Positions 6,621 to 64,000 of a DNA stretch of 64,000 bases are shown in pieces. This DNA comes from Prorocentrum cordatum. Taxonomy: Eukaryota. How positions within the stretch are numbered: the first letter of the stretch is position 1; each line of letters starts with the position of its first letter. The DNA lies in contig CAUYUJ010000170.1 of NCBI GenBank assembly GCA_963575745.1, forward strand, positions 1 to 64,000. Reading direction: 5' to 3'. The translations under genes were made by a program, and so were the position numbers. Below the pieces are notes generated by a model that saw nothing but the letters and a program-made list of their open reading frames with translations, ran no database searches and was not told the DNA's origin.

Positions 6621-7204
6621 CTAGACCTCGGCGTTTCTCCGCCTCCCCCCCTCCACGTCTGTCCCCCATTCTGCGTTCGTTGTCATCCTTGTCGTCGCCG
6701 TCCCGTTCATCATCTAAGCTGCGCAGGTGTGCGACGCGCGTGGCCCGACATCGTTTGGCGAAGCAGTTCGGAGTGCTGCTTATTTCGCAACGTGCTCTTT
6801 TGTGTGGAGCGTTCATATGAACAGTCGCCTCGCGTGAAGGAGCTGGGTACGTCTCGGGTTCGGATGCATTTGCTTGACTGTCCCCAAGCCTTGCGCCCCC
6901 CCCCAACCCCCACCCAAGAATTGGAAAATTCATGAATGCCCCACCCTCGTGGTTTCTTCGCGACGCGAAAATTTCAACAGGACGGCCACTAATCGAATCG
7001 ATAAGTCGGCTTAGCGATCGAAATGGAACGGGTCGGTGGACATCGGAAGCCAAGTCGGGAGAAATCGAATCGGCAGAAATCGGCGGGCCAGTAAGGCCCC
7101 CCTTGGAGAACGAAGTCCACATCGGAATCGATCGACACTGGACCGAACCGAGTCGGCGGAATCGAAATGAGCCCCGTGTCAGCGAATCGGGAGAGCGGGC
7201 GATG

Positions 7205-7263
7205 CTCCAGAGGGAACCCGTCGATGTCGCACTCCATCGCCTCCCCGTCCAGCTCGTCCGCGC
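7205..7263 (-). CDS. Exon E of putative U2SURP/SR140/RRC1-like splicing factor (GADELDGEAMECDIDG[FPLE])
   Basis: Acceptor CCGCAG|GC. Phase-1 start matches exon D. GC3 very high. ELDGEAM/DIDG resembles the DLDGxP acidic repeats of U2SURP. Donor uncertain; a GT donor would end the exon at 7218. Confidence 0.65.
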
Positions 7264-8444
7264 CTGCGGCGGCGCTCGGGGAGGGCGGCCACGCTCGCCA
7301 GCGGTGCTGAGGGAAGATGGCCCCATACCACCACCGCCGAGCACCCAAAGGCGGCGAGAAGGACAAGCATATCTATATATATACATATATATATATACAC
7401 GCATCGAGAGAGAGAGAGAGACACACAAGCGTTTGCAAACATAGTAATTAACGAGAGGGAGAGGGAGGAAGGTGGGGACAAAGACGAGGAGAGGAGGCCG
7501 AGAGGTACGCGGAGACGAAGGAAGAGATGAGGCTGAGACTGGAAGAGGTAAAGAGAGAGAGAGAGAGATGAATACATACAGAAAGACTACGAGTAATACA
7601 CATTAACTACTGGAGTCACGCCGCGCCTCTGGCGCTGAGGTGTTAGTAGTCGGGCGCATTCGCAACGGCCGTTCCAAGGAGAAAAGCACTGATGACCAAT
7701 CTGAAAGAGGCCACCGGAAAAAATACTTCACGAGTCGAAAAAGAGATCACAAATAAGGAACGCTTGGGAAAGCCACGCTGGTAGCCATTTGGAGCTGTCT
7801 TGGGCTCTAGACGACAAGTCTCTGCTCTACGCTGTCTTGGGCTACATAGCCTCTGCCCGACGACCTTGTGGAATCCGTGGATAAGGAAGACGGGCCCCTG
7901 TGCCAGCAGGCGTTCAAGGAGGGGCATGTCTCACCCTTGGCTGTAAGAGCAGTGAAGACCTCACGGGAAGAACCCAAGGGATAAGCGTTCGCTCGCACGT
8001 GGACGGGTTTCACAACACACACACACACGCACACAAACACACACCTTGAGACGCCTCGCGCCTTCCTAGCGAAGAGTAAAAGGGCTCTTGGAACCGTTGC
8101 CCATAAACCTTAAAGTGTCTCCATGCTCCCTCCAGAGCCCATTGGCTTGGCCTCTTGAATTCCTTGCAGCGTTCCCCGGGTTCTCTTCGGACCGTCGCTT
8201 GTGCCTATGAGGCTGCTTCTTATGGCCCCTTAGTACGCTCCTGGAGCCTCTGGAGGGCCTGCTGGCCAGCCCTCCCAAGCCTGACCCCAACACGATTCCG
8301 TCGCGAGACCCCCTCTAGATCTAACGACAATGACAACCCAAAAGACAATCCCTGGAAAAAAACCTGAGGACCGCGCCGTCCTGCACACGTCGAACCTCAA
8401 GCGCATCGGCACCGCTGGATGCTGGACACCGCATCGGCACCCCT

Positions 8445-10169: not shown

Positions 10170-10490
10170 TTGACATTGTTGTTGATGATGATGATGCTGC
10201 TGATGATGATGATGACGATAATGATGGTGATGACGATGATTGTGATGATGATGGCGATGATGACGATGATGATGATTATGCTGTTGATGACGAGGCTGAT
10301 GGTAATGATGATGATGCTGCTGATGACGATGATGATGAATATGATCTTCATGATGGTGAGTATGAGTATGATGCTGATGACGAGGATTATGGTGAGGATG
10401 ATGATAATACTGCTGCTGCTGATGACAATGATGATGCTGATGCTGATGCTGCTGATGATGATGCTCATGTTGATGATGATGTTGTTGGTG
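10170..10490. repeat. (GAT)n microsatellite
   Basis: gatgatgat/gctgat runs. Confidence 0.9.
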
Positions 10491-11484
10491 TTGAACTCTC
10501 ATTTCTGACAAATAATTATTGTTGATCCCCCCACCGGCGCATACTGCTTTTTCAATCAAACTGTGCCCCTCGACGCTCGCACCTTGTTTCTTGACAGGGG
10601 AAATCTTGATGCTCAAACTGGGCCCCCGGCCCCCCGGATTACAACAACAACCGCTCCCGCTTGAGACTTCCTTACAATTTAGCCAGGACCGCCGCTCCCC
10701 CCCCCGAGATTCCTTCACATTTTATTCAGGAATCGCGCTCTCGCTTGGGACTTCCTTACCACTTATTCAGGAATCGCTCTCCCGGCGCCCTGGGGTCGCG
10801 CTCTCGCTGGAGACTTGCTTGCAATTTACTGAAGAATAGCGCCGTTGCCTTGGAATTTCTTGCAATTTGCTCAAGCGGCGCGCTCCCGACACCCAGGCAC
10901 CCAGGAGTCGCGCCCGTTGTGGCCCCATGTGCATGCCCTTCGTGGCCCCGCTGTCGCCGTTTGTGGCCCCCTCAGTCCTACGTGGCCCAGTTGCTACCCT
11001 CAGTGGCCCCATCGTTTCCTTCTGTGGCCCCGCATTATCTGCCCTTCGTGGCCCCCGCTTGTTCGCGCTCTTCGTGGCCCCATACGCATTCCCTTCATGT
11101 CCCCGCTGTCGCCCTTCGTGGCCTACTTCGTGTCCTTCGTGGCCCTGCTGTCGTTCTCTCTCGCTCTCGCTTTTGCTCGTCGTCGCCGTCGTCGTCGTCG
11201 TCGCCGTTGTCGTCGACGTCGTCGTCGTCGTCGCGGTCGGTCCCCTGTCCGTCCCTCTTGGGGTCGGGTCGACGGTCCGCGGCTGCCCCGCCGATCAGCG
11301 CTGCCGCTGGCCAGGCCGACGGTCCGCGGCCGCCCCGCCGCTTGCCGGGCCCCGGCCTGCAGGGAAGAAAGGAATACCCCCCAAAAGGGGTTCGATCGAA
11401 AACGAAGGGGGTGGGTTATCGAGGGTTTGGGAAGTGCGCGTTATTGGACACTCGAGCATGTAAGGGCGAACGGTCTTAAAATGA

Positions 11485-11506
11485 GTATTGTTGTTGTTGC
11501 TGTTGC

Positions 11507-11579
<73 letters not shown>

Positions 11580-11600
11580 ATTGTTATTGTTCTTGTTTTT
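11485..11600. repeat. (GTT)n microsatellite
   Basis: Near-perfect gtt run. Confidence 0.95.
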
Positions 11601-14600
11601 GTCCTTCTTCTTGTTGGGTGTTCTTCTGTCCCAGGTCTGGCCGTGCTCTCGGGGGGCGAGGCCGCCAGGGCCAGGAGAGGGGGCGGGGGGCACCTCGCGG
11701 CGCGTCCCGTGCCGGTGCCTTCCCGCTCGCCGTTGTTTTGTTGCCCCAGGCGGGTGCGAAGCGTGTCGGGTCGGGCGCAGAGGAGGCCGGCCGCAGAGGA
11801 GGCCGGCATCGGCAGAAGTTCTTAGGGCCTCTAGAATGCCCTTGACGGGATCTCTTATGTAAGTACAACATCTTGGGTGCGTCGTACGGGGCGCTCTTAG
11901 ATGCCTGCTGCTCGTCCTGTGGCCGTCTTAGGACTGGGGGCTGGCTCAAGAGGCCCAAACACGGAAACTGTCCAACTATTTGCACGAGTTTGCCCCTCTC
12001 GCTGTTTAGGTCTCAAGAACGTCGCAAGCACAGCCCCCGAGGACCCAAGAGGAGCCCAGCCCAAAAGGGGGTCCGCGAACGGACTCCAGGAGCATGGTTG
12101 GGAATCATCCCCCTCCTTCCCCCAAGATGGTTCCAGGACCCCTGCCAAGCACCCATGAGGCCGCCCAGAGGCCCACAGGGGAACTCCAAAAGGTCGCAAC
12201 CATGTTCCTCGGAGCCCTTCACCGGGAATCATTGGAAGCACGGCAGAGAATACGTTGCAGCCTTCAATCGCTCCCACTGCGCCTTGACCTGCAACCCAGA
12301 CGCTGTGGTGGGATGGACCGACGGCCTCTGGATCCATTGCTTCTTGTGTTCACACGACGACGATGACGATGACGATGACGACGACGATGCTGGATCAGAA
12401 GAAAGCGTAAAAATCTGTCTAGTTCCCCAAAGCCTTTCCACAACACTCTCGGCCCACCCCGCCGCCACCAGCTCTCGTCGACGAGATCGGTCAGACGGCC
12501 CAACACATGAACGCCTAGATGAACCAAAAAGACCTCCGTACATCGCCAAGATGCTCCAAGAGCTCTCGGCAACAACCCTCAAACGGCCCTACAAGGCCTC
12601 GAAGACGGTTCCGGACGTCCTAAGAGGGCCCCAACAGGACGCTCAGATGGCCAAAATGATGGCACCAACTGTAGGTCTCCTGCAAGTTTCTGGCTTCCAA
12701 GCGGTTCGGCTCAAGATGGTTCCAGGAGGGCCCCAAGGAGCCCAAAGAATGCCCCGCAGAGTCCCATGAGGGTACCAAGATGGCCCGAGGACGGCCCAGG
12801 ACGGCCCTAAGGCAGCCCAAGAGGAAACAAAACCAGAGACCCCTGCAGCTCAAGAGCGCACCCAAAAGGTGGAAAAGGGCCCCCAATAGGGCAACAGGGC
12901 CCAGGGGAGAGAGGTCGCCAAGAAGACCAAAGAGGCCCCCAAAACCGGCTGCCGAGGCCGCAAGCGGCACCAACATGCCGTGAAAGACTCCCCGCTTGGC
13001 CACGGGGTGGGCCGCCGACGCACCATAGGCGACTTCGACAACACTTGACCACTGACTCGACAAAGCTCGGGAGACAAACGACGGCCGAAGATTTACTCGA
13101 GCTCGCAAATACGTCTCCCTCAAAGAAACTACGAGCCTTTCAAATCTTGACGAAACAGTTGGCGTCAAGCCACTGGTTGCCGTCGGAACCCTGGGTTACT
13201 GGCGCAATCGGTAAGATTCGGAAACCGTAGGCCCCATTCCAAACAGTAGAATACCACTCCACAGCAGAGCACGAAACACCTTCTGAACAAGATTGCTGGC
13301 CGCCCATCAAGTCTTCTTCAACGCGAATATCAGAGATCCATTCTGTTTCCATACACGCAATAAAAGTTGAAAGCCACGGGTTCGTATTCTGAGGCATTCT
13401 CGCCGTCTTCCTCCTCATCCTCCACTTCCCCCCCTCCTCCCTCCTGCTGCTCCTCCTCCTACTCCTTCTTTGCCTCCTGCTGCATCCTCCCTGCCTTCCT
13501 TCCCAATCCTCCTCATCCCCTCCCTTCCTCCTCCTCCTCCTCCTCCTCCTCCTCCTCCTCATCGTCATACTTATCCTCATCCTCCTACTCCTCCTCGCTC
13601 CCCTCCGACCTCCCTCCTCCTTTTCCACCTTCATGGCGAGAGATCACTTCCCCCGCCCGAAGTGGCGGCGCCGACTAGGGTACCGCTGGGCAGAGTGGAC
13701 GATTGTCGGACAACCCATGGCCAGGGGCATCCTCACACAAACGGCGCCCCCCATACGTTTTCTAGAGTTCCATGCCTCCCCCACGAGTGGACCCAGGTTA
13801 GTTTCGTGGACTCCCCCCCCGCACCCATGGAGGAGCGGCGGACACAACGCGCACAAGGAGAAGCAGGAGAACACAATCACGCTCTGTGCAGTGAAATCTG
13901 GAAGGAACGCGACCGAAACGCGTGAGGGTGCTGGAGAAGCGCCTGGCAAGGGGAGGGAGGAGGAGGAGGAGGAGGGAGGAGGAGGAGGAGGAGGAGGAGG
14001 AGGAGGAGAGGGGGAGGAGGAGGAGGAGGCGGAGGAGGAGGAGGAGGAGGAGGAGGAGGAGGAGGAGGAGGAGGAGGAGGAGGAGGAGGAGGAGGAGGGG
14101 GAGGAGGGAGGAGGAGGAGGAGGAGGAGGAGGAGGAGGAGGAGGAGGAGGAGGAGGAGGAGGAGGGAGAGAGGAGGCGGCGCGCGCGGTAACGAATCGGA
14201 GGGCCTCACTGCCGCAGCTGCCGATGACGGGATATCGCCCTGCGCCAGGGGGGCCTCTCGGGGCCTCTTGGGGTCCTGGTCTCGGCCTCCTGGGCCTACA
14301 CCCTCCTCCCCTCCACCTCCTCCTCCTCCTCCTCCTCCTCCTCCTCCTCCTCCTCCTCCTCCTCCTCCTCACTCCTCCTCCTCCTCCTCCACCTCCTCCT
14401 CCTCCTCCTCCTCTCTCCACCTCCTCCTCCTCCTCCTCCACCTCCTCCTCCTCCTCCCTTTGGGGGCGGGCTGGTCTCGGCCTCCCGGGGGCCCCTCTTG
14501 GGGCCCTCTTGTGTTCCACCCCGCGGCCGTGGGCAGCGGTGCTGCAGGCAACGCCGTGGTTTCACCGTCCGTTGCTTATGCCCCGTTGTCTTGCGCCAGC

Positions 14601-14685
14601 TGGCCGCTAGGACATTCCACCCTCGGTAAATCTCAAAAGGTAATGGCCTCGACATGGCTCACACGTTCGCTGTAAGCTCGAGGGT

Positions 14686-15948
14686 TCATACCACGACAGC
14701 GGCAACAAGGTCTGGCAAAGCTTTCGAAATGGCCGGCACAATTGCATGATCCGACAAGTACTTGTAGCCTTCGGGAGGACAATGAGGTTTGCAACGCTCG
14801 CAGAGTTTGCCACATTCTTGCATGGTTTTGTGCAAATCGACAACGGTGACATTCCTTTCCGCCATGATCGTGGTCGCAATCTCGTTGAGCTCGAGGACTC
14901 GTTTCTCAGATGGGCTTAGAGCACCAGGCACCGAGCGGCTACCGCCAGGCATGGTCGTCAAGAAATAAAGTACAGTGGCTGGTTGCCTTCGCTGCAGTAA
15001 GGGTACCTTGGCAGCGGCCAGAATCGTGTCTGCAATTTCGCTCAACCCGTTCTGATACGTGATATTGTCGTCTGCGCCATCGTGAAGACCAAAGTTGAAA
15101 GTGATGACATCCCATGCTGGCAAGACATGGCGTGGAGTACGGAGGAAATACTTTGTGCATAGTTGCCCGTATTGAACGCCGTCCGCGTTTCCTCCGCCAG
15201 CGTTATCAGGACCATGCTGCACATTTGCCTTGCCGACCAGAGAAGCCCGCACGTTCATGATGTACCCAGCACTAACGCTGTCTCCAATGATCAAAACATT
15301 TGGCATAGCAGAGCTGATTGTAGATGGTCCTGGCCCACAGCAGCACCCGCCTGAAACTTTACCGACACCTGCACAACCAGGGTAAGATGTTGAGTTCGGA
15401 GGGGCGCAACCATACCCACCAGGCACCTTGTAGGCATCAGGGCTCTTTCCGATGCAGCACGTATCTCCTTCTGGACATTGTGTGCAACCGGACGCACCGC
15501 ATTTCTGCAAAGGTGGTCCTAAAGAAGAAGTGCCCGTGTTGGTCGCATGACGCGATGGACATGCGGCTATCCCGAGCACATGAATCCGATTATTGCTCCC
15601 ACAACGTTCGGTTGCATCACCAGTACATGGTTCTGCACGTGTGCACTGTGGATTCTTATCCTGGGGGATCGTGTAAGGACCAAAGCCGTGGTCGCAATAG
15701 CAATTGCCTCCGTTCTCCAAGCCAGCAAGAGATCCAGCTCCGAACCCAGCTAAGCAACACAAATATATGCAACGCTCTTGACTCATATTATTATCATTGG
15801 AAGCAGCGAGATACTTTAAAACACGTCGTTCTCCATCTGGCGTTTGGTACGGGTCGACGAAGCAGCCAATCGCCGAGGGCGATACACACTGATTGCTACA
15901 ATCGGTAACATGTGGCCACGTTGCAGCTAACATGGAGAGCGCACGCAT
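14686..15948 (-). CDS. Intronless WSC-domain + SGNH/GDSL hydrolase (retrogene)
   Basis: WSC pattern GCFVD..MSQERCIYLC..AGLENGGNCYCD..PCTGDATERCG. SGNH block I LIIGDSV, block III WDVITFNFGLHD, block V PH..EGY. TGA at 14686-14688. Start MRALSML at 15948; alternative ATG at 15999. Confidence 0.85.
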   Translation of the reverse strand: MRALSMLAATWPHVTDCSNQCVSPSAIGCFVDPYQTPDGERRVLKYLAASNDNNMSQERCIYLCCLAGFGAGSLAGLENGGNCYCDHGFGPYTIPQDKNPQCTRAEPCTGDATERCGSNNRIHVLGIAACPSRHATNTGTSSLGPPLQKCGASGCTQCPEGDTCCIGKSPDAYKVPGGYGCAPPNSTSYPGCAGVGKVSGGCCCGPGPSTISSAMPNVLIIGDSVSAGYIMNVRASLVGKANVQHGPDNAGGGNADGVQYGQLCTKYFLRTPRHVLPAWDVITFNFGLHDGADDNITYQNGLSEIADTILAAAKVPLLQRRQPATVLYFLTTMPGGSRSVPGALSPSEKRVLELNEIATTIMAERNVTVVDLHKTMQECGKLCERCKPHCPPEGYKYLSDHAIVPAISKALPDLVAAVVV

Positions 15949-15975
15949 CTTCCAGGAAGATGTTCTCCAAGTGGC

Positions 15976-16000
15976 CTTGAGCCAACTGGTTTGAGTCATG
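15976..16000 (-). other. Relict SL remnants (ATGACTCAAA-CCAGTTGGCTCAAG)
   Basis: TTGGCTCAAG is an exact SL 3' end at 15976-15985, preceded by a degenerate second copy. Confidence 0.6.
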
Positions 16001-16094
16001 ATGATGTTCTCCGTCAGATTTCGCCCTTCTGCTAGGGTGCGGCCAAGAACCCTTGGTTTTCCGCAAAAGCTTCCTACGAGGCGTGCAACACTGT

Positions 16095-16116
16095 CTTGAG
16101 CCAAAATGGCTACGGA
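16095..16116 (-). other. Full 22-nt dinoflagellate spliced leader (TCCGTAGCCATTTTGGCTCAAG) integrated at the retrogene 5' end
   Basis: Exact reverse-complement match cttgagccaaaatggctacgga. Confidence 0.97.
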
Positions 16117-16954
16117 CCATGGTTTCAGCGCCCTTGGCCGCGGCAAGTTCCCCGACACCGCGTGAACCGCGCAGCCTTTGGGCGATCTTAGCGCTCGGAG
16201 TTTCCTAGGGATTCGGATCTATTGTCGGACGAATCTCGCGATGTGGAAAGCGTCTAGAAACATCGATGTGCATTGCTTTGGAAAGGCTGTCGGGAACATG
16301 GACATCGAGGTTCCCGGAAGGCACTCTAGGAACATGGTCTAGGACGTGGACGCGATGGCTTCGAGAGGCTCTGGACCCTCGGGTCGGCTAAACGCAAGAG
16401 GATCCCGGGCAAGGGTGGCCTCCAGTGTGCGGCTTCAGTGGGCTCCCCCAGCCCCACCAAAGCGGCACGCGTGCTCGAATCTGGCCCGCCTGCGCCCGCC
16501 TGAAGCCGCGCACCAGAGGTCACTCCAGCGAAGGATCACTCTTACGCGTGCGGTCGATCGATCAGGGGCGTCTTAGGGCTACTCGACGGCGTCTCGGGGG
16601 CTAGGGGGCCTCGTGAGGGCTGGCTGGCGGTCTCGGGCTTTTTCGAACCTCTGTTGAGGCTCTCCAGGTGGCTTCTTGGGCGTTTTGGGCGGCCTCCTGG
16701 ACCGTCTTCGGGCCCTCTTGGGCGTTCTGGGGGTCCTCTGGAGGGACTCGTGAGCTGCTTTCGAGCGATGTCGAAGGCCTCTTAGGCCGTCTGCGGCCAT
16801 CGGGCATCGGCCAAACCGCGTGTCGTCGAAAGGCTCTCGGGGCTTCCTCGACGCCATTGTTGCTGCCCTTGGTCCACTTTCTGGACTGGTGACCTGTCTG
16901 TGGGGCTCTCCTCCTCCTTCTCCTCCTCCTCCTCCTCCTCCTGTCTCCCTACCT

Positions 16955-18203: not shown

Positions 18204-18292
18204 CTGCGAAACGCACAACACCGCACCGCCCCCGACGCCGGTGCCCGCACGCGGGGCGAAGGGCGGCGCGGGCGGCGCGGGCGGACGCCGGC

Positions 18293-18359
18293 CTCGCCCC
18301 GCCGCCGCCGAGGCCCGCGCGGCGCCCGCGCCGGCGCCGGAGCCCGCGGCGAGCCGTGC
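18293..18359 (-). CDS. Exon D of putative U2SURP-like gene (ARLAAGSGAGAGAARASAAAGR-G)
   Basis: Acceptor CTCTTCCCTCCCAG|G and GC donor CGAG|GC. Phase 0 in, phase 1 out, matching exons C and E. High GC3. Confidence 0.6.
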
Positions 18360-19030
18360 CTGGGAGGGAAGAGGGGCATCAATGAAGGGGCCCGATGGTC
18401 CAGCATCGTCATCGATGGTTCTCGCCGAGAAAAAATGCACACGTCCGAGCGATGCCGGGCCCCCCAGGGAGAGAAGAGGAGGCCCGAGGACGGCCCGCCA
18501 CACGGGCACAATCTCGTGGCCCTCGCCGAGCCACGGGCTCCCCCCGGGGGCAGGACCGGTCAGCATCAGATCGATGGAATCGGACGGGATCGAGACGAGC
18601 CTCGAAGCTTTGAAGGGGCCCACAGACACACAAGTAAATACACGCAAATAAAACAGATTCCCCATAGTTTCCCATATGTTCTGGGTTTTTGTCTTCCCCC
18701 CCACTTCCCATATTTTCCCATATTTTCTGGGGAATCGACGATTCATTGTGTCTGTGTGTTTCTTTCCCCCCTGAATCTAGTCGGGCATGTGCGAAAAAAA
18801 CGGGGGCGGCGGCGGCGGCGGACGACGGCAGTGTCGTGAAGACGTGCTCAACTCTGAGAAAAACTCTGTTTTGAGGAGCCTGGGGCCTGTACAGAAGCGA
18901 GGGCCCGGGTCAACTCGCAGAGTAAGAATGGAAAGAGAGCTGGCCAGTCTGGTGTGCCACCCGTCTGTGTCGACGTGCTTTGGCCTCAGCTCTATAGGCA
19001 GAGTTTGGGCGAAACAATCTAATTCCCCGA

Positions 19031-19742
19031 AAATAGCATGCTCATAAGCAGCAGCTCCGGGAAATGACAGACGTGACTCGACATTGTAGTCGACGAAGGC
19101 AAGAGGTACGGTCTGGAATTGGATTGGGGCAAGACTGTAATGCATGAGCGTGCACAATTATGGCGCGATTGTCTCCCATACTGGTGCCCCGCTGACAGCG
19201 GTGGAGCAAGCAATGTATCTTGGTGGCCTGTTGAACGTCAATGGCATAGTAAAGCCAGAAGTGACCAGGAGAATCGGTAAGGCCAAATCCGCCTTTCAGA
19301 AATTGTATCAATATTGGTCTCACGCCAACATCAGCCGCGCCAGACAAATATAAGTGTACAAAACGATCGTTTTGCCGAAGTTGTTGTACACTTTGGAAAC
19401 GCTTTGGCTGCTGCAGGCAGACAAAGACCGTTCAGACAGCTTCCACACGCAATTTTTAATGACTAGTTCTAAGACTTCCAAGCGCATATGTTTCACGAGT
19501 GTCTGATAAAAAGGTTTGGGAGCGAGCGGGGGAACACCCACTGAGCTCCACACTTCGCTGGCGCCAAACGGCGCTACACAAGAAAATTGCAGCGTTGCCC
19601 GGAGCCGAACCTTTCAGACTTTTAACATGCCAGCCTGGCACCGACCTGCCCAGAAGATGGGCGCACTGGCGACGCAGGGGAAGGCCTAAACAGCAGTGAG
19701 CCCCTTGCGTGTATAGCCTTCTGCCTACACCTTCGCTTTAAG
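19031..19742 (+). pseudogene. 5'-truncated, decayed non-LTR retrotransposon (LINE) RT C-terminal region
   Basis: LDIVVDEGKRYGLELDWGKT, YLGGLL..EVTRRIGKAKSAF, IVLPKLLYTLETLWL, RVSDKKV, RRRGRPKQQ. In-frame stops and frameshifts. Confidence 0.85.
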
Positions 19743-61300: not shown

Positions 61301-61565
61301 GGCAAAGAGGAGGGCAGCGCAGATCGTGCATATCTGGCGATGTGTTGTTTTGTACGATGCCTTTATACAAATGTTAGCCTCGCGTGGAGAAGGGATGGGT
61401 ATGTCTCGGGTCTTTTTGTGTTGCAGTGCCCCCCCCATTCGTGGAAGCCCGCTTGAAAAAAATCCCCCCGCGCCAGGAGGGTGCGCGGCCGGCGTATTGC
61501 GCAGACAAAGAAGATTCGTTCAGGGGTCAGGTGCGCAAGGCGAGATGCCCGACGGGGACACTCAC

Positions 61566-61869
61566 TCAACGCTTGCCCATAGAGGCGTCACGGTTGGTCA
61601 TGTGGTACTGCCTGGCCGGGGGCAAGTTGGCGAACGTCTTCAGCTCCGACTTCTCCATGTACTTGGCGTACAGCGTCTTCACCTTGTCCGTCTGCCCGTC
61701 TGCGGCGGAATCCAGGAGGTCCTCGGAGATCTCGGTCTGCGCGGCGAAGTCCTTCGGCTGGTTGCGCCAGTACGTGTTGAGCATCTTGAACTTGTTCTCC
61801 TTGGCCAGGACCGCTTTCATGTCGCCAGCGTCGATGGCGCTCTGCAGCTTGATGATGGCGGGGGCGTAC
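61566..61869 (-). CDS. psb31: Psb31-like photosystem II extrinsic lumenal protein, exon 2
   Basis: YAPAIIKLQSAIDAGDMKAVLAKENKFKMLN..KVKTLYAKYM follows the diatom Psb31 pattern (YG.RI..L..AV.KGDF.AV..EKNAF.LFN..L..AY.EY) as recalled. AAG|G acceptor; TGA at 61566-61568. Confidence 0.75.
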
Positions 61870-61870
61870 C

Positions 61871-62046
61871 TTGGCGGCGCGCAAAGGGGGGTAGGGTAGG
61901 GGGAGGGGGGAAGGCTTCTTAGAAGCACCCTGCTTCTTAGAAGGCCTCGGCTCTACGTCTATAGAGAAGGCCCGCGCCTTCTAAGAAGCAGGGGTGCTTC
62001 TAAGAAGCCTTCCCCCCTCCCCCTACCCCCCTCTGCGCGTTGCCGA
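61871..62046. mobile_element. Introner-type MITE forming the psb31 intron (intron 61870-62050)
   Basis: ~75-bp imperfect inverted arms, TTGG...CCGA termini, TSD gtacc at 61866-61870 and 62047-62051. Confidence 0.85.
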
Positions 62047-62050
62047 GTAC

Positions 62051-62277
62051 CTCTTCATGCAGGTCACCGGCTCGCCCTGGAAGTCGGCCAGCGCCGTCTC
62101 GCCGCCGGCCGCCGCCAACAGCACCGCGGCCGCGCCCATGGCCGCCTCGCGGCGCCCCGGCGGCGGGGCCGCCGCGAGGAAGGCGCCCGGCGCGGGGCCC
62201 GCGAGGGCCGCGAGGCACGCGGCCGCGAGGGCGTAGGCGCCCGCGCAGGCGGCGCACAGCGGCAGGAGCCTGGCCAT
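62051..62277 (-). CDS. psb31: Psb31-like protein, exon 1 (plastid and thylakoid targeting presequence)
   Basis: MARLLPLCAACAGAYALAA signal peptide, AF motif, twin-Arg GRREAA, hydrophobic stretch, ALA|D cleavage. Donor AG|GTAC. The exons total 531 nt, in frame (176 aa). Confidence 0.8.
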
Positions 62278-62340
62278 GGCGAGGGTCGGTCGGGGAGGCC
62301 TCAGAGGGTCGGCAGGACGTGCGACGGAGGCAGGCGGGTG

Positions 62341-62370: not shown

Positions 62371-62716
62371 TGACATGACATTCTTCGTGGTGCTATGTGC
62401 GTGCTACAATCTGTGTGGTGCAATCGACGTGGTGCAGCATGTGGTGTGCGAACTGCAGTGTGCCATAGGTATGGCGCCATGAATTTTGTTGCCAACTGCG
62501 TGGTGCAGCGTATGCGGTGCAGTCTACGGGGCGCAACCAATCTCTGTTCGCAGTGAGTTGTCCACTCCACTGCTCGCGCAAACATCCCACCCACCCACCC
62601 GCAACTTGGTCTGCAAAACCTCTTAAGACCGTGACGGTGGGTACCACATGGCACTTGGCAACGACACCGACGCCGACGACGACGACGACAACGACGACAA
62701 CGACGCCGCCGACGAC

Positions 62717-62737
62717 CCGTAGCCATTTTGGCTCAAG
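62717..62737 (+). other. Intact DinoSL (CCGTAGCCATTTTGGCTCAAG)
   Basis: Exact 21-nt match. Confidence 0.97.
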
Positions 62738-62868
62738 GCCATGGCGATCCCGACGACCGCGAGTCCTTCGGGCGCCGTCGAGCGCGAGGGACGCCGCGCT
62801 TTGGGCCTGCTTCTTGCTTCGTTTTTTCGAGGCGGCGTGGGCAGGCGGAGCGCGCGGGGCCAGCAGCC

Positions 62869-64000
62869 ATGTCGGGCGACGGAACTGGAGCGCCGCCACC
62901 CTGGAGGCGCAGGGTGTACTGGGTCTGCCAGTGCAAGGAGTGGAACTGGTGCGACAAGAGGGCGACCTGCAAGTCCTGCGGGAAGGAGGCGCCAGCGTGG
63001 GCGAAGCGCCTGCGCGCGATGCACCAGCCCCAGGCCGACGGGGAGGGATTCGTCCAGCAGCCCAGGGGGCGCTCGCACCAGCGTGCAGCGCGCCGAGCTG
63101 GTGAGGCCTCCAGGGCAGCCTCGGCCGCCAGCACCGTGCCGAGCAGCGCGCCCAACAGCAGGGTGCGGCCGCGGGGCGGAGCCAAGCCGCCGCCGTGGCG
63201 TGAGGAGCGCGAGGAGCAACCAGAGGAGCCCGCTGCGAGTCTGGAGCGCAGGCTCGAGGGAGCCCAGGCTCGCGTCTCCAGCCTCCGCGAGGCGGTCGCC
63301 ACAGATGGGACCAGCGAGGCCTTCCAGCGAGAGGCCAGGGCGGCCCTCCTCGCAGCGGAGGACTCAGCCGAGAGGGCCGAGGCCGAGCTCCGCGAGGCCC
63401 AGCGGCTCGGGAGGCCCCCCCACGCCGTCCTCCACGGAGGCGCCAACGCCATGCAGAAGGTCGAGAAGCAGATCACTGCAACCAGAGCCAAGCGCGAGCA
63501 GGCCGTGCAGCGGGCTGAGGCCCTCAGGGAGGAGATTGCGGCGATGCAAGAAGAGCTGGCCGAGGCCGAGTCCGCGGTCGAGGACTTCGACAGCCAGCTC
63601 GGCAAGCTCGAGGAGTCGAAGGCTCAGACAGTCCAGCAGGCACTCCAGCGGGCCATTGAGGCGTGCGGAGGCCAGCGGCCCCTGGAGACCGCGGTCGGGG
63701 GCCTCGTCACCCAGGTCAACCAGTTGGGCGAGATGCTCGGCCCTAACTCGGATGGCGTCGCGCCCAGGCTCCTGGAGATCATGGACATCATCACCACGCA
63801 GAGCGCCGCCATCTCGGACATGCTCCACCCCGCTGCGCCTGCTGCCGCTGCCTCGCGCTGGGCCGACGGCCTTGGCGGGGGCGGGCTCGCCGTCGACGAC
63901 GAGGAAGGCTTCCCCGCCCCTGCCGCTGGGGCCTCTGCCCCCGCGGAGCCGCGGCCGCCAGCGGAGGCCGCAGTTCAGCAGGTGCGACCAGGCCCGCCCA
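62869..64000 (+). CDS. RanBP2-type zinc finger + coiled-coil protein, probable LINE ORF1 (3'-incomplete)
   Basis: MSGDG..YWVCQCKEWNWCDKRATCKSCGK, then long E/A/R/Q heptad-rich helices. Open with no stop to the window end (absent from the ORF track), intronless, directly behind an SL. Confidence 0.7.
   Translation, partial: MSGDGTGAPPPWRRRVYWVCQCKEWNWCDKRATCKSCGKEAPAWAKRLRAMHQPQADGEGFVQQPRGRSHQRAARRAGEASRAASAASTVPSSAPNSRVRPRGGAKPPPWREEREEQPEEPAASLERRLEGAQARVSSLREAVATDGTSEAFQREARAALLAAEDSAERAEAELREAQRLGRPPHAVLHGGANAMQKVEKQITATRAKREQAVQRAEALREEIAAMQEELAEAESAVEDFDSQLGKLEESKAQTVQQALQRAIEACGGQRPLETAVGGLVTQVNQLGEMLGPNSDGVAPRLLEIMDIITTQSAAISDMLHPAAPAAAASRWADGLGGGGLAVDDEEGFPAPAAGASAPAEPRPPAEAAVQQVRPGPP

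Follow-up and report, generated by a model that had tools for sequence, protein, structure and literature searches.

How does a gene come to carry, in genomic DNA, the spliced leader (SL) that dinoflagellates splice onto their mRNAs? This question is raised by an intronless open reading frame (ORF) of Prorocentrum cordatum, which lies on the minus strand of the first 64,000 nucleotides of contig CAUYUJ010000170.1 (assembly GCA_963575745.1), hereafter the window. An earlier note, made from the letters of the window, had described it as a retrogene with at least two rounds of mRNA recycling behind it, and the perfect SL, the inner SL relics and the intronless ORF reported below support that description. 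We conclude that the gene is genuine: an orphan SL retrogene that is expressed and belongs to a kind both known and very abundant. The genomic copy of this expressed, intronless WSC-SGNH gene was probably inserted from a full-length, trans-spliced mRNA by target-primed reverse transcription with the enzyme of a long interspersed nuclear element (LINE). The interpretation given in the earlier note stands in part. The atypical composition of the gene and its choanoflagellate relatives had not been noticed there.

An intact spliced leader stands ahead of older relics

The 5' part of the insertion comprises four features.

16095..16116, minus: perfect 22-nt dinoflagellate SL, 5' end of the insertion (sequence match)
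16005..16094, minus: 90-nt spacer, putative flank of an earlier insertion site (sequence)
15990..16004, minus: older, decayed 15-nt SL relic, 10/15 (SL comparison)
15976..15989, minus: inner SL relic of 14 nt, with the exact 10-nt SL 3' core at 15976-15985 (SL comparison)

The outer SL matches at 22 of 22 positions, as previously noted, where chance predicts no such match, and it is identical to the DinoSL printed in the accessible parts of PMC12014239 and PMC5585692. RNA contigs from two runs terminate within it, at 16106 and 16107. The inner relics, placed at 15976-16000 in the earlier note, are of unequal strength. The one at 15976-15989 is firm, an exact SL 10-mer of any kind being found in 4 of 5000 shuffles of the untranslated region (UTR; P 0.0008). 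The one at 15990-16004 abuts it in register, and a 10/15 match at one fixed place would be met about once in 1000 (a binomial estimate made by hand); it is nevertheless the weaker of the two, as such a match arises somewhere in the UTR in about 8% of shuffles (P 0.082). Two properties of DinoSL retrogenes are found here: the genomic DNA ahead of the coding sequence (CDS) contains an SL or relics, and there are several relics, one inner relic being firm and the second weaker. By eye, a 10-bp exact direct repeat with a period of 44 brackets both inner relics (15955-16012, minus). An older, nested target-site duplication (TSD) was sought between the 5' and 3' UTRs and none was significant.

Since the gene is headed by the leader that dinoflagellates add to their mRNAs, it has likely returned to the genome from RNA on two or three occasions. 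The inner relics would stem from one or two rounds of recycling of an ancestral copy; the transcript of that copy would then have received another SL, about 90 nt ahead of them, the spacer being captured through use of an acceptor at that place. In the consulted portion of PMC5585692, relics are reported to be separated by gaps of 6-450 bp.

The gene encodes a predicted WSC-SGNH protein

14686..15948, minus: intronless CDS of 420 aa, with a weak signal-peptide-like start, WSC domain, Cys-rich linker and SGNH hydrolase; GC at third codon positions (GC3) 0.49
15598..15870, minus: WSC domain (PF01822), 38.9 bits against a cut-off of 27.8
14809..15288, minus: SGNH/GDSL hydrolase domain, GDS Ser224 and His389 intact (GDSL_2, predicted model, alignment)

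The ORF is open and intronless from 14686 to 15999 (437 aa), which agrees with the intact frame reported before. The second ATG, at 15948, is favoured as the start codon because the homologues begin about 20 residues ahead of the first conserved Cys. The WSC half of the earlier WSC-SGNH label is well founded: the domain was not listed in a direct scan of the protein, but scored above its cut-off in a separate search, and the profile of the family matches the Kremen1 WSC domain (E 1e-10). The SGNH half falls just short of the profile threshold, the GDSL_2 match (E 5e-7) being slightly below the cut-off. The best structural match of the AlphaFold model (mean pLDDT, the predicted local distance difference test, 69.6) is the SGNH hydrolase 4h08; a search of the ESM Atlas with the protein returned only matches below 0.9.

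The consensus of SGNH hydrolases includes a block III Asn within GxND and a block V Asp within DxxH. The fold, the block I Ser, the block II Gly and the block V His are present in the protein, whereas these two residues are not: GLHD and CKPH stand in their places. As GLHD and xPHC are common to all 12 aligned rows, they represent a variant of the family and not decay. The product is a predicted serine esterase (Ser224/His389, without the block V Asp) carrying a glycan-binding WSC domain, and to judge from its domains it likely acts on carbohydrate esters. P0323, an unnamed relative with 91% identity, differs from the protein in 17 of the 121 variable columns but in only 1 of the 85 conserved ones (P 0.0008), and this concentration in variable columns indicates purifying selection.

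The gene is transcribed into its 3' flank and has one duplicate locus

The stretch, or part of it, is present in 20 of the 24 listed RNA runs, with a best share of about 0.63, which equals the share of the query occupied by the gene. RNA contigs were aligned from four of these runs, two of them recorded as poly(A) RNA. In three runs single contigs span from 14470, 14523 or 14526 to 16083-16107, and in the fourth 14619-15937 is covered in pieces; the contigs of all four thus cover the gene, and none reaches the unique 5' flank. At the other end, the contigs of three runs cross the 3' repeat considered below and enter the flank (to 14526, to 14523 and beyond 14470), so that the transcript likely ends in host DNA. 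One of the contigs crossing this junction differs from the window at 13 of 1581 letters, which indicates that the 3' junction is common to another strain.

The only other genomic copy is on contig C16760. It was rejected as an independent insertion, as C16760 duplicates the whole locus: its match to the window begins at base 1 and extends to about 48.7 kb, at 94-99.5% identity. The overlap of C170 and C16760, about 49 kb at this identity, also means that copy counts in the assembly are inflated by redundancy. A parent locus, which the earlier note had proposed to look for, was not found: DNA and protein searches of the genome, which short exons can escape, gave only the duplicate locus and distant matches of 31-46%, and no second version of the gene was seen among the RNA contigs at 85% identity or more.

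An assembly artefact, in which DNA of a contaminating protist or a cDNA was joined into the contigs, would fit the foreign composition of the gene, and it would fit the presence of only two near-identical copies, a single locus having been assembled twice. We consider it highly improbable, as a dinoflagellate SL and its relics head the gene, the same junctions occur in both contigs, and the RNA contigs of three runs, including the one with 13 differences, continue across the 3' junction into host-type flank.

A probable target-site duplication bounds the copy

16117..16130, minus: 5' copy of the candidate TSD, abutting the SL; 12/14; same letters in the duplicate contig
14554..14567, minus: 3' copy of the candidate TSD, 12/14, with no A-tail ahead
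14470..14553, minus: GC-rich flank (76%) into which the transcript continues, putative new 3' end (RNA contigs)

The 14-bp repeat with two mismatches that the earlier note had placed next to the SL is present as described, and it is probably a decayed TSD. When the search was anchored at the SL and covered the 220 bp after the stop codon, an equal or better repeat was given by random genomic flanks in 18 of 3000 draws and by random regions in 9 of 3000; under a harsher null drawn from the local GC-rich flank the figure was 13 of 400. The anchored nulls together place a 12/14 repeat in the post-stop region at P 0.003-0.03. The GC content rises from 56% to 76% across the 3' repeat, with a change-point at 14559 (interval 14534-14628). 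On the mechanism proposed here, a LINE enzyme would have inserted the mRNA with the new SL at this place, duplicating about 14 bp; the duplication and the A-tail would have decayed since, and the copy would have come to use a 3' end supplied by the flank and would have survived its parent.

Several observations weigh against this account. In a blind scan of 9 kb the repeat is unremarkable, 32 of 144 swapped controls scoring as high; it carries two mismatches although the SL is perfect; and the 5' GC change-point lies at 16341, away from the SL. On reading the sequence no poly(A) is found at the 3' end, as had been noted before: the 3' poly(A) tail of LINE retrocopies, present in younger copies of the genome, is missing from this one. 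Transcription through the 3' repeat leaves room for a true 3' end further out. The boundaries are supported neither by a parent nor by an empty site, the 5'-flank search of this genome having returned two matches, both filled; the empty-site allele named as a check in the earlier note was thus not found in this genome, and the second strain is likewise filled at the 3' junction. As regards the gene itself, the strain differences within the CDS (5 non-synonymous, 1 synonymous) indicate no constraint by count, although all five non-synonymous changes fall in variable columns; P0323 has no organism assignment; and the hydrophobic stretch at the N-terminus, at 1.39, falls short of the 2.1-3.2 seen in all nine homologues compared.

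Other copies in the genome point to LINE machinery

Exact SLs number 13,881 in the genome, against 0 for the control. We sampled 79 of 100 listed SL places, omitting the final 19 and two that lay close to contig ends, and retained 74 loci after removal of a four-copy array and one overlapping locus. An A-rich tail together with an exact repeat, of at least 10 bp, of the flank preceding the SL was found at 16 of the 74 loci and in 159 of 5402 swapped pairs (2.9%). Most of the sample (57/74) lies in low-complexity DNA, namely microsatellites; among the 17 loci with complex flanks, nine score at least 12, two of these in tandem repeats, compared with 0 of 144 swapped controls. A-tails and duplications of 12-21 bp occur alike on SL-headed LINEs and on SL-headed copies of cellular mRNAs. 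Examples are L091, an element of 6.5 kb with an A-tail, a 16-bp TSD, reverse transcriptase (RT) and RNase H, and the cellular retrocopies L069 (WD40) and L113 (S1). Counting the query locus, 30 of 81 loci match the LINE proteins of a second SL-headed element of the window.

An A-tail with a TSD is the signature of target-primed reverse transcription, as performed by elements without long terminal repeats (LTRs). Its occurrence on SL-headed LINEs and cellular retrocopies argues for LINE machinery rather than for Ty1/copia. A true retrogene whose 14-bp repeat arose by chance, the ends of the insertion lying elsewhere or having been made by LTR-element or recombinational machinery (Ty1/copia), is an unlikely alternative: the 12/14 match, the missing A-tail and the RNA that continues past the repeat would fit it, but the anchored nulls and the GC step across the repeat argue against chance, and while Ty1/copia is proposed in the accessible text of PMC6050394, the copies of this genome with A-tail and TSD are of LINE and not of LTR type. 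The LINE-type TSD of the earlier note is accordingly favoured by a modest anchored statistic, the change-point at 14559 and intact examples elsewhere in the genome, and disfavoured by the blind scan.

The second SL of the window (21/22) heads a decayed LINE of about 6.7 kb (62716-64000, plus, continuing in L119 to about position 7140), with a Cys-rich ORF1 and endonuclease-like, RT (PF00078) and RNase H-like parts, within a GAC microsatellite. The motif TTATCC(A/G)A lies 10-20 bp upstream of the SL in four SL-headed elements (L062, L084, L094 and L102), which suggests a preferred target sequence. L096-L099, on contig C39, form a tandem array with a period of about 3-5 kb and a perfect SL and the same flank in every unit. 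The first SL letter is T in 70 of the 74 genomic SLs counted, although the published consensus has D.

The gene may be foreign to the dinoflagellate

The GC3 of the CDS is below that of all 63 comparison genes of this genome (0.58-0.94): 30 intronless kinases (0.63-0.92), 11 other WSC matches (0.68-0.94) and 22 SGNH matches (0.58-0.93). Among a further 74 SL-headed ORFs, of which many are LINE frames, GC3 is nowhere below 0.51. Decay of methylated CpG was rejected as the source of the low GC, the observed-to-expected CpG ratio being 0.93. Three of the 31 strong homologues carry a taxon name, and all three are from choanoflagellates: Diaphanoeca grandis, Stephanoeca diplocostata and Salpingoeca urceolata. 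In a phylogenetic tree the gene belongs to a clade of 25 rows (support 99/93) whose three named rows are all choanoflagellates, the rest being unnamed, while the three paralogues of the genome itself lie outside the clade, on long branches. A second, quick tree of 45 rows, with three too-short rows omitted, agrees with weaker support. No SL relic better than 11/15 was detected in 33 homologue contigs, several of which have short introns. A partial match of 49% is labelled COSAG04, a label similar to COSAG02, which denotes Picozoa; it suggests a wider range among protists.

These data can be read in two ways. The gene may have been acquired from a choanoflagellate-like heterotrophic flagellate and then serially recycled by the dinoflagellate mRNA cycle, an origin to which we give a little under an even chance. 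It would have been trans-spliced, and LINE machinery would have reinserted it as many as three times, with loss of the copy that landed first; the present copy would still be expressed and under purifying selection, with a codon use that is not that of the host. Alternatively, the gene may be an old dinoflagellate gene inherited vertically, its low GC3 resulting from low expression or from drift over repeated reverse transcription and its choanoflagellate affinity from thin sampling of named dinoflagellate proteins; the chances of this are evenly poised. Vertical descent would agree with the 28 of 31 strong homologues that have no taxon name and with the source organism's own protein being missing from the protein database, and low GC3 does occur in a tail of the genome's range, SGNH genes reaching values as low as 0.58 and one SL-headed ORF 0.51; yet the gene lies under every kinase, every other WSC gene, every SGNH gene and every SL-headed ORF compared, with no methylation decay to explain it. 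Likewise, the long branch to the nearest non-self relative, the weak inner supports and the COSAG04-labelled match favour vertical descent, whereas the position of the genome's SGNH paralogues outside the clade and the lack of relics above 11/15 in the homologue contigs speak against it.

Two further loci are candidates similar to this gene for foreign origin: L065:565-1041, which is SL-headed, with GC3 0.51 and no Pfam match, and L086, which is SL-headed, with GC 0.50 and a 20-bp TSD.

The gene plausibly lies within a host intron

18240..18362, minus: candidate upstream host exon, near single-copy, AG acceptor by reading, three frames open
7169..7306, minus: candidate downstream host exon, single-copy, best frame GC3 0.87, no Pfam match

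These two GC3-rich candidate exons share a strand and flank the insertion, with about 10.9 kb between them, and it is plausible from their arrangement that the gene is nested in a host intron of about 11 kb. The earlier note had placed it between exons D and E, to which the correspondence of this pair is uncertain. Further unique GC-rich islands lie between them, and a Pfam search of five candidate host exons gave no match. The segment 11265-11390 was rejected as exon E, being a repeat with at least 40 copies. It falls within a high-copy 1.2-kb repeat at 10400-11620, which contains an exon-like GC-rich stretch; the 126 bp tested from this repeat recur in at least 40 copies, at 97-98% identity.

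Elsewhere in the window, 18780-19700 holds by eye a degenerate, RT-like LINE fragment. A gene for the photosystem II protein Psb31 (PF18240) lies at 61554-62279 (minus), split by an intron of about 180 bp with inverted-repeat ends that is introner-like by eye; 61572-61868 is Psb31 and not PsbQ.

Comparison with known systems

DinoSL-tagged retrogenes and mRNA recycling were reportedly described by Slamovits and Keeling in 2008. The gene shares with DinoSL retrogenes, as far as they are set out in the accessible parts of PMC5585692, PMC6050394, PMC12014239 and PMC3229502, the 5' genomic SL, the stacked relics, the intronless structure and orphan status; parents are given in PMC6050394, in the portion consulted, for only 6-10% of such genes, most known cases being orphans. 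It differs from them by visible candidate insertion boundaries, the phrase 'target site duplication' being absent from the three retrogene papers compared. No paper that deals with TSD-bounded retrogenes of dinoflagellates, or with this family of proteins, turned up in our literature search, which did not extend to most subscription papers or to any supplements. As one SL retrogene among thousands, the gene is ordinary. The A-tails and duplications of 12-21 bp in this genome bear on which element drives dinoflagellate mRNA recycling, the mediator of which is called unknown, with Ty1/copia favoured, in the accessible text of the 2018 review (PMC6050394).

Processed retrocopies of the LINE-1 type are made by target-primed reverse transcription. 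Their hallmarks are given in PMC7692494, in the part consulted. The gene shares with them the form of a full-length, intronless mRNA copy and probably also the bounding repeat, which in such copies measures 12-21 bp, and intact A-tailed examples occur in this genome; it differs by its missing A-tail, its decayed candidate TSD and the SL at its 5' end. Most sampled SL copies of the genome (57/74) differ from the LINE-1 type by landing in microsatellites.

At the protein level, the closest counterparts are uncharacterised WSC, Cys-rich and SGNH proteins of Diaphanoeca grandis (P0004, 55%), Stephanoeca diplocostata (P0016) and Salpingoeca urceolata (P0135), with which the motifs GDS, HGPDNxGGG, FNxGLHD and xPHC are common. 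P0004 has the full architecture, whereas the alignments of P0016 and P0135 extend over only about 59% of the query; the gene studied here differs by its dinoflagellate host, its SL head and its weaker signal-like start. The fold of BT3161 (PDB 4h08) resembles the one predicted for the protein.

The low GC3 and the choanoflagellate clade are the new aspect of this locus, and a foreign origin, standing at even odds, is its only distinctive feature. Were the gene foreign, SL addition and retroposition would be a route that installs and moves a transferred gene, a role suggested only in passing in the accessible text of PMC3229502, and the stacked SL relics and TSDs would be a readable history of the fixation of a eukaryote-to-eukaryote transfer. 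Transcriptome trees in PMC3879968, in the part available, grouped 11 dinoflagellate contigs with opisthokonts such as choanoflagellates; the proposed direction and type of donor would be the same here, with the difference that a genomic copy would record the trans-splicing and recycling that followed the transfer.

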